DNA of 64,000 nucleotides, from NCBI RefSeq assembly GCF_003334355.1, contig NZ_QOWP01000005.1; one strand, given 5' to 3'. This document shows positions 844 to 58,850 of the stretch, piece by piece. The notes beneath the pieces are model-generated. The model did not search any database. It was not told where the DNA came from and worked only from the letters and a program-made list of their open reading frames with translations. The DNA comes from Escherichia coli (GTDB taxonomy: Bacteria > Pseudomonadota > Gammaproteobacteria > Enterobacterales > Enterobacteriaceae). Positions within the stretch are counted from its first letter, which is position 1. The number at the start of each line of letters is the position of its first letter. A program made the translations under genes and the position numbers.

Positions 844-1194
844 AGATGCTCAGCAGAATCCCCCACATCCTGAAGGAGGTGTATTCAGACAGGCATCCCA
901 CCTGACTTCGAATGATGATTATTCATCACTATAGAGAGCATTGATTCTAAGTGTCATATGAAAGTACCAATTGATATATATCAAACAAAATAACCCTGAT
1001 TAATGAATTATTACGTTTATCATGTTAATTCATCATTATTACATCATCATTGTAAATAATTAAATTAACTTCCATAACATTAAAATATGTATCCACTGAC
1101 GCTTTTTTACATAACGAAGAATTGACCATTTTGTCCTGTTGTGCCTTAATGTAAGTACCGTCCACAGCGTGGGACATACTTCAAGGAACCTTTT

Positions 1195-12501: not shown

Positions 12502-12592
12502 ATAAAAATGAACCCTCAACGCTTCCCTCAATGTTTCGGGAGCTATGCGGGTTCAATCATACACGGGAAGCGAGGCGCTTCCCATCACGTTA
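12502..12592 (-). ncRNA. sroE: SroE-type sRNA / ispG 3'-UTR element
   Basis: 110-bp ispG-hisS spacer on the minus strand contains a long hairpin (GAACCC...GGGTTC, about 12510..12554) followed by a U-run; SroE is recalled to map to the gcpE(ispG)-hisS spacer; exact ends not determinable here. Confidence 0.5.
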
Positions 12593-13711
12593 TTATTTTT
12601 CAACCTGCTGAACGTCAATTCGACGCGCTTCGTCCAGCTGACTGGCTTTCGCACGAATGCGTGCTTCCAGCTGGTCGATCATATCGTTGTTGTCCAGACG
12701 GTCTTTGCGCACGCCATCTTCATAGAGGCCGCTTTTCTTGTTGCCGCCGGTGACGCCGAGTGTAGAAACCAGCGCCTCACCTGGGCCATTCACCACGCAG
12801 CCGATAATCGAAACGTCCATCGGAGTGATGATATCTTCCAGGCGTTGCTCCAGCGCGTTAACCGTACCGATAACATCAAATTCCTGACGCGAACAGGTCG
12901 GGCAGGCGATGAAGTTGATCCCGCGCGAACGGATACGCAGCGATTTCAAAATATCGAAACCGACTTTGATCTCTTCGACCGGATCGGCCGCCAGTGATAC
13001 GCGCAGCGTGTCGCCGATGCCTTCAGACAGCAGCAGACCTAAACCAATGGCGGATTTTACTGCCCCGCTGCGTGCACCACCGGCTTCGGTGATCCCCAGA
13101 TGCAGCGGCTGATCGATCTGTTTTGCCAGCAAACGATAAGACTCAACAGCGAGGAAGACGTCAGACGCTTTCACGCTGACTTTGAACTGATCGAAGTTCA
13201 GGCGATCGAGATGATCAACATGGCGCATGGCGGATTCCAGCAACGCCTGCGGCGTCGGTTCGCCATACTTTTCTTGCAGATCTTTTTCCAGCGATCCGGC
13301 GTTAACGCCAATACGGATCGGAATGTTTTTATCGCGCGCACAGTCAACCACCATGCGAATACGCTCTTCATTACCGATATTGCCAGGGTTAATACGCAGA
13401 CAATCGACGCCGTATTCCGCTACTTTCAGTGCAATGCGATAGTCGAAGTGGATGTCAGCCACCAGCGGCACGTTAACCTGCTGTTTGATGAGTTTGAACG
13501 CTTCTGCCGCGTCCATCGTCGGTACGGATACACGGACGATATCAGCGCCAACGCGTTCCAGCGCCTTGATTTGATTGACCGTTGCTTCGACGTCTGTCGT
13601 ACGCGTATTGGTCATGGACTGTACGGCGATGGGAGCACCATCGCCAATCGGCACATTCCCAACGTAAATACGTGTTGATTTTCTACGTTGAATTGGAGCC
13701 TGGTTATGCAT
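12593..13711 (-). CDS. ispG: 4-hydroxy-3-methylbut-2-enyl diphosphate synthase (IspG/GcpE)
   Basis: ORF track 372 aa, [36 protein letters not shown]... Confidence 0.97.
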
Positions 13712-25397: not shown

Positions 25398-25587
25398 GCA
25401 AAAGAGAGTAATTATTGTTTATTTAGCGTATTATCGACACCGGCCCTTTCCGCCGTGTTCGGTAATAAAATAACCTGGCTTATTAGTCCGAATTCAGACA
25501 AATATAAACAAATCCTGCTCAAAATTAAAAATTCTAACCGGTAAAAGATATTACTTAAACATGTAAATTCACTTTCCTTTAAAAAAC

Positions 25588-25616
25588 AAAAAACCGCCAA
25601 AATCAGGCGGTTTTTT
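25588..25616. terminator. bidirectional intrinsic terminator (second copy)
   Basis: AAAAAACCGCCAAAATCAGGCGGTTTTTT. Confidence 0.75.
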
Positions 25617-25684
25617 GTTGCTGGTCCGGTTCGCGGCCTTTCCAGCAGGTTGTATTACCGTAGTAATGCAAGCGCGTCTCAGCG
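25588..25684 (-). ncRNA. candidate ~100-nt sRNA, copy 2 (TimR-like antitoxin candidate), divergent from the ryfA-like transcript
   Basis: minus-strand TTGACA-N17-GAGTAT promoter (25691..25719), terminator at 25588..25616; contains GGAAAGGCCGC. Confidence 0.4.
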
Positions 25685-25690
25685 GAGACA

Positions 25691-25719
25691 ATACTCGCCA
25701 GTAACTCTCTTTTTGTCAA
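25691..25719 (-). promoter_or_regulatory. putative sigma70 promoter for sRNA copy 2
   Basis: TTGACA (25714..25719 complement), 17-bp spacer, GAGTAT (25691..25696 complement). Confidence 0.35.
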
Positions 25720-25808
25720 GCAAAAGAGAGTTATTATTGTTCTGTTAGTGTATTATCCACTGCGGCCCTTTCCGCCGTCTCGCAAACGGGCGCTGGCTTT
25801 AGGAAAGG

Positions 25809-25883
25809 ATGTTCCGTGGCCGTAAATGCAGGTGTTTCACAGCGCTTGCTATCGCGGCAATATCGCCAGTGGTGCTGTCGTGA
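25809..25883 (+). CDS. small ORF 1, 24 aa (MFRGRKCRCFTALAIAAISPVVLS), hypothetical membrane peptide
   Basis: AGGAAAGG directly upstream of ATG; hydrophobic; below ORF-track size cutoff; an upstream CCCTTTCC could sequester the SD. Confidence 0.3.
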   Translation: MFRGRKCRCFTALAIAAISPVVLS

Positions 25884-25907
25884 TGCGGTCTTCGCATGGA
25901 CCGCACA

Positions 25908-26033
25908 ATGAAGATACGGTGCTTTTGTATCGTACTTATTGTTTCTGGTGCGCTGTTAACCGAGGTAAATAATAACCGGAGTCTCTCCGGCGATAATTTA
26001 CTGGTGGTTAACAACCTTCAGAGCAGCAAGTAA
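25908..26033 (+). CDS. small ORF 2, 41 aa (MKIRCFCIVLIVSGALLTEVNNNRSLSGDNLLVVNNLQSSK), candidate type I toxin-like peptide
   Basis: same frame as ORF 1, separated by a TGA and 4 codons; alternative ATG at 25896 gives 45 aa; about 15-residue hydrophobic N-terminal segment; no strong SD. Confidence 0.4.
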   Translation: MKIRCFCIVLIVSGALLTEVNNNRSLSGDNLLVVNNLQSSK

Positions 26034-26063
26034 GCCCGAATGCCGCCCTTTGGGCGGCATATT

Positions 26064-26840
26064 TTAGATTATCCGATTCTGTTTAAAGTCACGCAAAAAA
26101 CCACCCCAGCGACGTTCATAGAATGGCGCAATATGTTCGGTAATAAAGTGGCTAATTCCTTTTTCCCCTTTTTTCACCTGACAAATATCGATTGGTTCAT
26201 CGCCAGGTAATGTATCGGTCGCTACACTTCCCGTCGCCTGAATAATTTCTTCGATATCACCATCGGCTTCAATGCCAATAAGTAAATTAGGCTGTGCCTC
26301 TTCGTTCTCTTTAATTGAACAAATAAAAGCACGCTTCACCGGCTTAATGGTTTTAAATAAGGTGGTGAGTGAATCAATCATTTGTGCTGGCGGCTCTGCG
26401 ACTTCCGATAATATCAGCGATTCACCGCCTTCCAGGATTTCCTGGCTGCTCAGCGGATTTCCCTCTTCACCAATCAACAAACTGATTTCACGCGGCATAA
26501 ATTCTTTACCGGTTGGCAGTTTGGCATTAAGGAAGAGCGTTTCGCCAAGTGTCATCTCAAACAGCGTGCGAACGGGCATTACGACAAATGCCTGTTCGTC
26601 TTCAACCGCCTGTTGAAGTGCTTCTAACGAGGTGAAAAAAGGAATGACGCTGGTGCCGTCTTCTTTTTCCCAGTGCTGTAAATCAAGCGCGCTATCTTCA
26701 ACCACAGCCTCGCCCTGCGCCGCCGTACCAGGCACCCAGACGGTGGATTCCAGTAGAGTACGGAAAAAGGCCGGGCGGTGCGCCGGTTCAGTTGCTGCTT
26801 TTTCCAGCAGGTCTTCAAGTTCGTTTTTTGTTTCGGACAT
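26064..26840 (-). CDS. sseB: SseB (enhanced serine sensitivity protein)
   Basis: ORF track frame; ATG at 26840 (MSETKNELEDLLEKAATEPAHRPAFF...); ORF-track start at 26849 is a GTG 3 codons upstream. Confidence 0.88.
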   Translation of the reverse strand: MSETKNELEDLLEKAATEPAHRPAFFRTLLESTVWVPGTAAQGEAVVEDSALDLQHWEKEDGTSVIPFFTSLEALQQAVEDEQAFVVMPVRTLFEMTLGETLFLNAKLPTGKEFMPREISLLIGEEGNPLSSQEILEGGESLILSEVAEPPAQMIDSLTTLFKTIKPVKRAFICSIKENEEAQPNLLIGIEADGDIEEIIQATGSVATDTLPGDEPIDICQVKKGEKGISHFITEHIAPFYERRWGGFLRDFKQNRII

Positions 26841-31689: not shown

Positions 31690-32076
31690 TTATTTTGCTT
31701 CACGTTTGCTTTTATAGTCCGCAATGGCGGCTTTGATCGCGTCTTCTGCCAGAATAGAACAGTGAATTTTCACCGGCGGCAGTTCAAGTTCTTCAGCAAT
31801 ATCGGTGTTTTTGATCGCCTGCGCTTCGTCGAGAGACTTCCCTTTCACCCATTCGGTGACCAGGGAGCTGGAAGCGATAGCGGAACCGCAGCCGTAAGTT
31901 TTAAAACGCGCGTCTTCAATGATACCTTCATCGTTGACTTTAATCTGCAACTTCATCACGTCGCCACAGGCCGGTGCACCCACCATGCCGCTGCCGACGT
32001 TCTCGTCGTTGTTGTCAAAGGAACCCACGTTACGCGGATTCTCGTAATGGTCGATAACTTTTTCGCTGTAAGCCAT
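31690..32076 (-). CDS. iscU: Fe-S cluster scaffold IscU
   Basis: ORF track 128 aa; conserved Cys residues and LPPVK motif. Confidence 0.97.
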   Translation of the reverse strand: MAYSEKVIDHYENPRNVGSFDNNDENVGSGMVGAPACGDVMKLQIKVNDEGIIEDARFKTYGCGSAIASSSLVTEWVKGKSLDEAQAIKNTDIAEELELPPVKIHCSILAEDAIKAAIADYKSKREAK

Positions 32077-33318: not shown

Positions 33319-33558
33319 TGCTCTATAAACTCCGTACATCACTCAATGCAAGGAATCAGGCTACCGGCTGGATGTACGACCGTGTTTACGGAACGCGATA
33401 CGCCCCGGCCTGATTCTAATATCTTGTTATCTTTAACCTAACTGTTTCGGGTTTCAGCAAGTTGACAAACTTACGAATCTCCGGGAGCTTACATAAGTAA
33501 GTGACCGGAGTGAGTATGTGCAGTCAACGCAGATGCAACACGAAACAGGACGGTTAAA

Positions 33559-34223: not shown

Positions 34224-34398
<175 letters not shown>

Positions 34399-56078: not shown

Positions 56079-57332
56079 TTATGCGTAAACCGGGTAACGT
56101 GCGCAGATGTCGAGAACTTTACCTTTGATGCGCTCGATAACGGCTTCATCATTGATGCTGTCCAGCACGTCACACATCCAGCCAGCCAGTTCTTTCGCTT
56201 CGGCTTCTTTGAAGCCGCGACGCGTAATTGCCGGAGTACCCACGCGAATACCGGAGGTCACAAACGGGCTCTTCGGATCGTTCGGTACGCTGTTTTTGTT
56301 GACGGTGATGTTAGCACGGCCCAGAGCGGCGTCTGCTTCTTTACCGGTCAGGTTTTTATCAACCAGATCAACCAGGAACAGGTGGTTATCAGTGCCGCCG
56401 GAAACGACTTTGTAGCCGCGCTCGAGGAACACTTCTACCATCGCTTTAGCGTTTTTCGCGACCTGCTGCTGGTAAGTTTTGAACTCAGGCTCCATCGCTT
56501 CTTTCAGAGCAACCGCTTTACCGGCGATTACGTGCATCAACGGACCGCCCTGACCACCAGGGAAAACGGCAGAGTTCAGTTTTTTGTACAGCTCTTCGCT
56601 ACCACCTTTCGCCAGGATCAGGCCGCCGCGCGGACCCGCCAGGGTTTTGTGAGTGGTGGTAGTAACAACGTGAGCATGAGGAACCGGGTTCGGGTAGACG
56701 CCAGCAGCAACCAGGCCCGCAACGTGCGCCATATCAACGAACAGGTAAGCACCGATGCTGTCAGCGATTTCACGCATTTTCGCCCAGTCAACCACGCCGG
56801 AATATGCAGAGAAGCCACCGATAATCATTTTCGGCTTGTGTTCTTTGGCTTGTTTTTCCAGATCGGCGTAGTCGATATGACCGGTAGCATCGATACCGTA
56901 AGGAACGATGTTGTACAGTTTACCGGAGAAGTTAACCGGAGAACCGTGAGTCAGGTGACCGCCATGCGCCAGGTTCATACCCAGAACGGTATCACCTGGT
57001 TCCAGCAGCGCGGTGTAGACCGCAAAGTTAGCCTGGGAGCCGGAGTGCGGCTGGACGTTAGCGTAGTCAGCGCCGAACAGTTCTTTCGCACGATCGATCG
57101 CCAGTTGTTCAACGATATCAACATACTCGCAACCGCCGTAGTAGCGTTTGCCCGGATAACCTTCAGCATATTTGTTGGTCAGCTGAGAACCCTGCGCCTG
57201 CATTACGCGCGGGCTGGTGTAGTTTTCGGAGGCGATCAGTTCGATGTGCTCTTCCTGACGTACTTTTTCCTGCTTCATAGCCTGCCACAGTTCGGCATCA
57301 TAATCGGCAATGTTCATTTCACGCTTTAACAT
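56079..57332 (-). CDS. glyA: serine hydroxymethyltransferase
   Basis: ORF track frame; start at [19 protein letters not shown] (417 aa); PLP-Lys context [14 protein letters not shown]. Confidence 0.97.
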
Positions 57333-57610
57333 CCGCATCTCCTGACTCAGCTAACAATAAAATTTTTGGCCTTTATAGGCGGTCCTGTTGGACAACGGCG
57401 AACAGTATAACCGAATCATTGTGCGATAACAGGTCTTGACAAAGGAATTTACGCAAACGATTACCTTCAGGCTACGCAAGGCTTTGGAGAATAAAGAGCT
57501 TGCAACCGGAAACGGATTTCTTTTCAGGTTTGTGATGCAAATTTTTCACTTCATCACATTCTTTCTGAAAAACACCAAAGAACCATTTACATTGCAGGGC
57601 TATTTTTTAT

Positions 57611-57633
57611 AAGATGCATTTGAGATACATCAA
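57611..57633 (+). promoter_or_regulatory. NsrR-type operator-like inverted repeat in the hmp promoter
   Basis: AAGATGCATTTGAGATACATCAA about 30 bp upstream of the hmp ATG; left half AAGATGCATTT matches the recalled NsrR half-site. Confidence 0.55.
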
Positions 57634-57659
57634 TTAAGATGCAAAAAAAGGAAGACCAT

Positions 57660-58850
57660 ATGCTTGACGCTCAAACCATCGCTACAGTAAAAGCCACCAT
57701 CCCTTTACTGGTGGAAACGGGGCCAAAGTTAACCGCCCATTTCTACGACCGTATGTTTACTCATAACCCAGAACTCAAAGAAATTTTTAACATGAGTAAC
57801 CAGCGTAATGGCGATCAACGTGAAGCCCTGTTTAACGCTATTGCCGCCTACGCCAGTAATATTGAAAACCTGCCTGCGCTGCTGCCAGCGGTAGAAAAAA
57901 TCGCGCAGAAGCACACCAGTTTCCAGATCAAACCGGAACAGTACAACATCGTCGGCGAACACCTGTTGGCAACGCTGGACGAAATGTTCAGCCCGGGGCA
58001 GGAAGTGCTGGACGCGTGGGGTAAAGCCTATGGTGTACTGGCTAATGTATTTATCAATCGCGAGGCGGAAATCTATAACGAAAACGCCAGCAAAGCCGGT
58101 GGTTGGGAAGGTACTCGCGATTTCCGCATTGTGGCTAAAACACCGCGCAGCGCGCTTATCACCAGCTTCGAACTGGAGCCGGTCGACGGTGGCGCAGTGG
58201 CAGAATACCGTCCGGGGCAATATCTCGGCGTCTGGCTGAAGCCGGAAGGTTTCCCGCATCAGGAAATTCGTCAGTACTCTTTGACTCGCAAACCGGATGG
58301 CAAAGGCTATCGTATTGCGGTGAAACGCGAAGAGGGTGGGCAGGTATCCAACTGGTTGCACAATCACGCCAATGTTGGCGATGTCGTGAAACTGGTCGCT
58401 CCGGCAGGTGATTTCTTTATGGCTGTCGCAGATGACACACCAGTGACGTTAATCTCTGCCGGTGTTGGTCAAACGCCAATGCTGGCAATGCTCGACACGC
58501 TGGCAAAAGCAGGCCACACAGCACAAGTGAACTGGTTCCATGCGGCAGAAAATGGCGATGTTCACGCCTTTGCCGATGAAGTTAAGGAACTGGGGCAGTC
58601 ACTGCCGCGCTTTACCGCGCACACCTGGTATCGTCAGCCGAGCGAAGCCGATCGCGCTAAAGGTCAGTTTGATAGCGAAGGTCTGATGGATTTGAGCAAA
58701 CTGGAAGGTGCGTTCAGCGATCCGACAATGCAGTTCTATCTCTGCGGCCCGGTTGGCTTCATGCAGTTTACCGCGAAACAGTTAGTGGATCTGGGCGTGA
58801 AGCAGGAAAACATTCATTACGAATGCTTTGGCCCGCATAAGGTGCTGTAA
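57660..58850 (+). CDS. hmp: flavohemoglobin (nitric oxide dioxygenase)
   Basis: ORF track frame; ATG 57660 with AAGGAAG SD ([17 protein letters not shown]..., 396 aa). Confidence 0.97.

Follow-up and report, generated by a model that had tools for sequence, protein, structure and literature searches.

The 23 bp at positions 57611 to 57633 of the analysed DNA, a stretch of 64 kb that we call the window, are almost certainly the operator through which an NsrR dimer keeps the sigma-70 promoter of hmp repressed. The element is not new: it has been described before as the NsrR operator of this gene, and it overlaps a known FNR site. As a textbook switch of hmp control it holds no new biology, and what is mildly new is comparative, namely that in Escherichia the operator is unusually weak as an NsrR site, serves as an FNR site at the same time and is accompanied by a lineage-specific auxiliary half-site. 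Enterobacteria detoxify NO under aerobic conditions mainly with the hmp product, which aids survival in macrophages and in the urinary tract, and NsrR is a winged-helix repressor of the Rrf2 family with an NO-sensitive iron-sulfur cluster. Hmp makes superoxide in the absence of NO (PMC2884951), which is why tight repression of the gene matters.

Identity and location of the operator

The window is part of an Escherichia coli chromosome; the 341 nt at 57330-57670 were matched, with 95-100% identity, in every one of 5426 complete E. coli genomes, and the matches are annotated as glyA and hmpA in those genomes. A sequence-only reading of this DNA had pointed to an NsrR-type inverted repeat within 57540-57659, about 30 bp upstream of the hmp ATG in a 327-bp divergent glyA-hmp control region, and its description of the place holds. 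The 23-mer AAGATGCATTTGAGATACATCAA occurs once in the window, inside that span and on the plus strand. It is followed by 26 nt and then by the hmp ATG (57660), and its centre lies 38 nt upstream of the ATG, so that "about 30 bp" is a fair summary. On the other side, 57332 is the last position of the glyA start codon, and the coordinates of the two coding sequences confirm an intergenic region of 327 bp. The features are collected in Table 1. The sequence-only reading had left out three of them, namely the FNR box within these same bases, the overlap of the site with the -10 hexamer and the predicted start of transcription, and the auxiliary half-site.

Table 1. Features of the glyA-hmp region, with positions in the window.
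Feature	Position	Strand	Basis
glyA CDS, serine hydroxymethyltransferase, divergent neighbour	56079-57332	-	ORF list; RefSeq annotation of identical DNA
Predicted -35 hexamer TTTACA, hmp promoter	57586-57591	+	Promoter scan; 100% conserved in 21 Enterobacteriaceae, recognisable throughout the order
Predicted -10 hexamer TAAGAT, 18-nt spacer	57610-57615	+	Promoter scan; 90-100% conserved
NsrR operator, 11-1-11 type	57611-57633	.	Exact match, PWM, ChIP-seq listing, conservation
Left arm AAGATGCATTT	57611-57621		Part of NsrR operator
Spacer G	57622		Part of NsrR operator
Right arm AGATACATCAA	57623-57633		Part of NsrR operator
FNR box TTGAG-ATAC-ATCAA (TTGAGATACATCAA)	57620-57633	.	9/10 to TTGAT-N4-ATCAA
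Auxiliary NsrR half-site AAGATGCAAAA	57636-57646	+	8/11 to half-site consensus
Shine-Dalgarno region AAGGAAG, hmp	57648-57654	+	Read from sequence; aaggaag conserved in Enterobacteriaceae
hmp (hmpA) CDS, NO-inducible flavohaemoprotein, 396 aa	57660-58850	+	ORF list; RefSeq annotation of identical DNA

Motif score and symmetry

The sequence-only reading had proposed a scan with an NsrR position weight matrix (PWM) as its check, and named a poor score relative to validated sites as the result that would speak against it. Our matrix, a symmetrised log-odds matrix, was built from the 11-1-11 sites in Table 4 of Mehta et al. 2015 (PMC5320621), that is from the ChIP-seq-positive sites together with yeaR, ygbA and tehA, 18 published NsrR sites in all with hmp left out. 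The hmp operator scores 18.76 bits and ranks 9th of 19 validated NsrR sites, all scored leave-one-out, so the score is not a poor one. It is the top-scoring 23-mer in the window. Among dinucleotide shuffles, 3 of 200 made from the window and 3 of 2000 made from the glyA-hmp intergenic region reach its score. The runner-up at 13.69 bits, TCGTTGACTTTAATCTGCAACTT (31931-31953), lies inside the iscU coding sequence and is probably a chance match, because the best hit of a shuffled window averages 13.7 bits. Also in the window are the isc operon and the nsrR paralogue iscR.

The claim of an inverted repeat holds for the layout of the site but is weak as plain symmetry. The two arms are those of an NsrR-type 11-1-11 site, in which the left arm agrees with the NsrR half-site consensus AAGATGCATTT at 11 of 11 positions and the right arm, degenerate and in the correct register, at 7 of 11. 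The plain symmetry of the element, by contrast, is at chance level: the arms are self-complementary at 7 of 11 positions, which is equalled by six intergenic 23-mers and by 1% of all 23-mers in the window. A repeat search of the glyA-hmp intergenic region from 6-nt seeds returned no inverted repeat, a symmetry of 7/11 being too weak. It is by its agreement with the NsrR motif that the element rises above chance, not by the palindrome alone.

The departures from the NsrR optimum are G14, A22 and A23, at a joint cost of about 11.7 bits. The matrix gives roughly 18 bits to the E. coli operator, about 24 after a change of A22A23 to TT, about 24 after a change of G14 to A, and about 30 to the full consensus AAGATGCATTTAAAATACATCTT.

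The published evidence agrees with this identification. The site was predicted by comparative genomics (Rodionov et al. 2005), and its reverse complement, TTGATGTATCTCAAATGCATCTT, is listed upstream of hmp in strain CFT073 as ChIP-seq-positive with ln P -18.22 (PMC5320621 Table 4). The CFT073 peak has its summit 34 bp from the start codon and half-sites at 44 and 19 bp (PMC5320621), which correspond to 57616 and 57641 in the window. NsrR enrichment at hmp in CFT073 was a modest 3.8-fold, against 9.7 at ytfE and 12 at hcp (PMC5320621), and this fits the weak score of the operator. NsrR is the main repressor of hmp, and FNR, MetR and, weakly, Fur also act on the gene (PMC2884951, PMC6950321). 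NO-responsive repression of hmp by NsrR, as first suggested, is thus supported by the matrix, by the ChIP-seq listing (PMC5320621), by the literature and by the conservation described below.

Promoter overlap and proposed mechanism

The -10 hexamer of the hmp promoter can also be read as TATAAG at 57608-57613 with a 16-nt spacer, and under either reading it overlaps the left arm of the operator. From the promoter scan we infer that transcription starts near 57622, which would make the operator span roughly -11 to +12. The element is therefore placed over the predicted core promoter of an NO-responsive gene, with the start point taken from this inference.

A dimer of NsrR on the operator would cover the inside of the -10 hexamer and the predicted start, up to about +12. 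Since the operator overlaps both of these, bound NsrR would be expected to block RNA polymerase. Once the iron-sulfur cluster of NsrR is nitrosylated by NO, the protein comes off the DNA, hmp is transcribed, and its product turns NO into nitrate. The release of NsrR by nitrosylation of its cluster is described in the literature (PMC6950321, PMC10783083).

Conservation across Enterobacterales

The hmp loci were searched for in one genome per species, using a degenerate pattern for the first 13 Hmp codons only. The search returned 120 loci, every one of which (120/120) encodes an Hmp-like N-terminus, and at each of them the 250 nt upstream of the hmp ATG were scored with the matrix from which hmp had been excluded. 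In all 101 scorable loci of Enterobacterales the best upstream match was an NsrR-type site, with scores from 18.1 to 31.7 bits and a median of 26.3, compared with -12 to +12 bits in control coding sequence of equal length. In 94 of the 101, the distance from the end of the site to the ATG is 15-45 nt. The hmp loci of Firmicutes and Helicobacter gave low scores with the NsrR matrix.

The lowest scores among the 101 Enterobacterales belong to E. coli and E. albertii, and the reason is the departures at G14, A22 and A23. In an alignment of the intergenic regions of 21 Enterobacteriaceae, TTTACA is invariant and the block ATAAGATGCATT is 90-100% conserved, with the conservation continuing into the right arm.

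Two side observations came out of this survey. At some loci (L059, L100, L120 (Providencia), also L002, L011, L079 and L118) 70-158 nt separate the NsrR site from the hmp ATG, which implies a long leader or another arrangement of the promoter. A contig of a planctomycete, a Phycisphaeraceae MAG (L005), carries a 22-bit NsrR site of the enterobacterial type, AAGATGTATATAAAATACAACAA, 22 nt upstream of an hmp-like gene for a divergent Hmp, which reflects either a broad conservation of the motif or a mis-binned contig.

The overlapping FNR box and other explanations of the element

The FNR box TTGAGATACATCAA makes up the rightmost 14 bp of the NsrR operator, and A22 and A23 are the bases that complete its half-site ATCAA. 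Because the right arm doubles as an FNR box, the operator is a composite of NsrR and FNR sites. It offers sites to two NO-sensitive repressors, and simultaneous occupancy by NsrR and FNR seems unlikely. Under anaerobic conditions the [4Fe-4S] regulator FNR could repress hmp from the overlapping bases; we take its position on the hmp promoter to be +5.5. Repression of hmp by FNR is described in the literature (PMC2884951, PMC6950321).

One could therefore ask if the element is primarily an FNR operator (57620-57633) for anaerobic repression of hmp, with a likeness to NsrR sites that is secondary. The match of 9/10 to the consensus and the published regulation by FNR (PMC2884951, PMC6950321) speak for it, and so does one E. 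coli strain, 2017.10.01CC, in which a single change makes the box perfect. We nevertheless consider it very improbable. There are 6 FNR-like boxes with at most one mismatch in the window where 2.3 would be expected, and a box alone is therefore weak evidence. A right arm that is FNR-like (at least 8/10) occurs chiefly in Escherichia and Citrobacter, besides a few others, and the usual NsrR right arm reaches 4-6/10, whereas the NsrR-type site is universal among the Enterobacterales sampled. Rodionov et al. 2005 agree that the FNR-like form is restricted and that the NsrR-type site is general upstream of hmp. The perfectly conserved left arm, AAGATGCA, also lies outside the FNR box. The FNR function complements the assignment to NsrR and does not replace it.

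A perfect FNR box, TTGATATATATCAA, lies elsewhere in the window (971-984), in the pdeF(yfgF)-yfgG intergenic region and inside a small annotated hypothetical ORF; pdeF is presumably FNR-activated.

That the NsrR match is only a by-product of an A+T-rich core promoter, with a conservation that stems from the -10 hexamer and the start region, is an explanation to which we give hardly any credence. It would account for the overlap of the left arm with the predicted -10, for the symmetry of only 7/11 and for a match in a region of 38% G+C, but the shuffles of that same region reach the score in only 3 of 2000 cases, and across 101 species GCATTT and the right arm A-ATRCA, well past the -10 hexamer, are conserved too. 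The ChIP-seq peak of NsrR published for the sequence (PMC5320621) and the gel-shift data argue against it as well. Finally, a Fur box for iron- and NO-dependent repression can practically be dismissed, for although weak repression of hmp by Fur has been reported (PMC2884951), the original claim for Salmonella hmp was retracted (PMC2884951), and the best match to the 19-bp consensus GATAATGATAATCATTATC in 57540-57680 is 10/19, which is background (about 1.2% of window positions reach it), with none centred on the operator.

Auxiliary half-site and variation within E. coli

A 9-nt direct repeat, TAAGATGCA, begins at 57610 and again at 57635, 25 nt apart, and its second copy supplies the auxiliary half-site AAGATGCAAAA. 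This half-site lies 25 bp downstream, is poorly conserved outside Escherichia, and appears as the "hmp (19)" motif in the published ChIP-seq study (PMC5320621).

The exact 53 nt of 57596-57648 are present in 5119 of 5426 complete E. coli genomes, and the 77 nt of 57586-57662 differ from the window in 1787 of 5419 matched genomes. Three variants were seen outside the 23-bp operator: a run of seven or eight A (A7/A8) before the ribosome-binding site and, in the auxiliary half-site, two single changes. The A-run, at 57643-57649, reaches from the auxiliary half-site to the Shine-Dalgarno region and is polymorphic, with A8 in the inspected examples against A7 in the window.

Strain 2017.10.01CC (L129) has G14 replaced by T (57624), which makes its FNR box perfect (TTGATATACATCAA) and improves the match to NsrR sites; the T-run in its promoter spacer is 1 nt shorter. 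In 5 of the 5426 genomes (L122, H23-H27) there is a 29-bp tandem duplication between the TAAGATGCA repeats, at 57619-57647, which doubles the FNR box, or NsrR right arm, together with the auxiliary half-site and makes the hmp leader longer.

In Escherichia, the strength of the NsrR site has apparently been traded for the FNR box. We can also imagine, as a rather speculative scenario, that an ancestral strong and near-palindromic operator was remodelled in Escherichia to the weakest site sampled when A22 and A23 provided the FNR half-site, that the auxiliary half-site partly compensates by recruiting a second NsrR, and that the repeat drives the 29-bp duplications. The overlap of the NsrR and FNR sites is already known, but the quantitative weakening and the idea of a compensation have, as far as we know, not been described.

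Other features of the region

Two further blocks of the intergenic region carry likely regulator sites. The sequence ACGCAAACGATTACCT (57451-57466), within a block that is nearly invariant in 21 Enterobacteriaceae, agrees with the PurR box consensus at 13 of 16 positions and adjoins a predicted glyA promoter, TTGTCA-16-AATGAT, on the minus strand at 57442-57415; this is probably the PurR operator that is known for glyA. A second block, GGATTTCTTTTCAGGTTTGTGATGCAAATTTTTCAC (57513-57548), is strongly conserved and holds matches to the MetR-like pattern TGAA-N5-TTCA at 57536-57548 (7/8) and at 57514-57526 (6/8), which are probably the published MetR sites common to glyA and hmp.

No RNA family of Rfam was found in the glyA-hmp region. 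Matches at the gathering level lie elsewhere in the window, at 12502-12593, 25422-26065, 33320-33429, 34275-34346 and 63018-63165 (sroE, IS128, ryfA, iscRS stability element, naRNA4, GlmY).

Relation to known systems

The element agrees in sequence, gene and position with the NsrR site of E. coli hmp (Rodionov 2005; Bodenmiller & Spiro 2006; Partridge 2009; Mehta 2015), from which it does not differ in any respect; only the E. coli genome is another one. Salmonella Typhimurium has the site AAGATGCATTTGATATACATCAT at the orthologous position, which shares 21 of 23 bases and also has an FNR-like right arm, TTGAT-ATAC-ATCAT, but differs by T for G at position 14 and T for A at position 23. The Salmonella site binds NsrR in a gel shift, and NO lowers the binding (PMC10783083).

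The ytfE operator AAGATGCATTTAAAATGCATCTT can serve as a near-perfect reference, since it has the same 11-1-11 layout and a left arm identical to that of hmp. It is a perfect palindrome of about 31 bits leave-one-out, while the hmp operator with its degenerate right arm reaches 18.8 bits. The FNR operator of hmp (Poole et al. 1996; Cruz-Ramos et al. 2002) shares 57620-57633 with the NsrR operator, but its regulator belongs to the CRP/FNR family and not, as NsrR, to Rrf2, and it is found mainly in Escherichia and the Citrobacter relatives.
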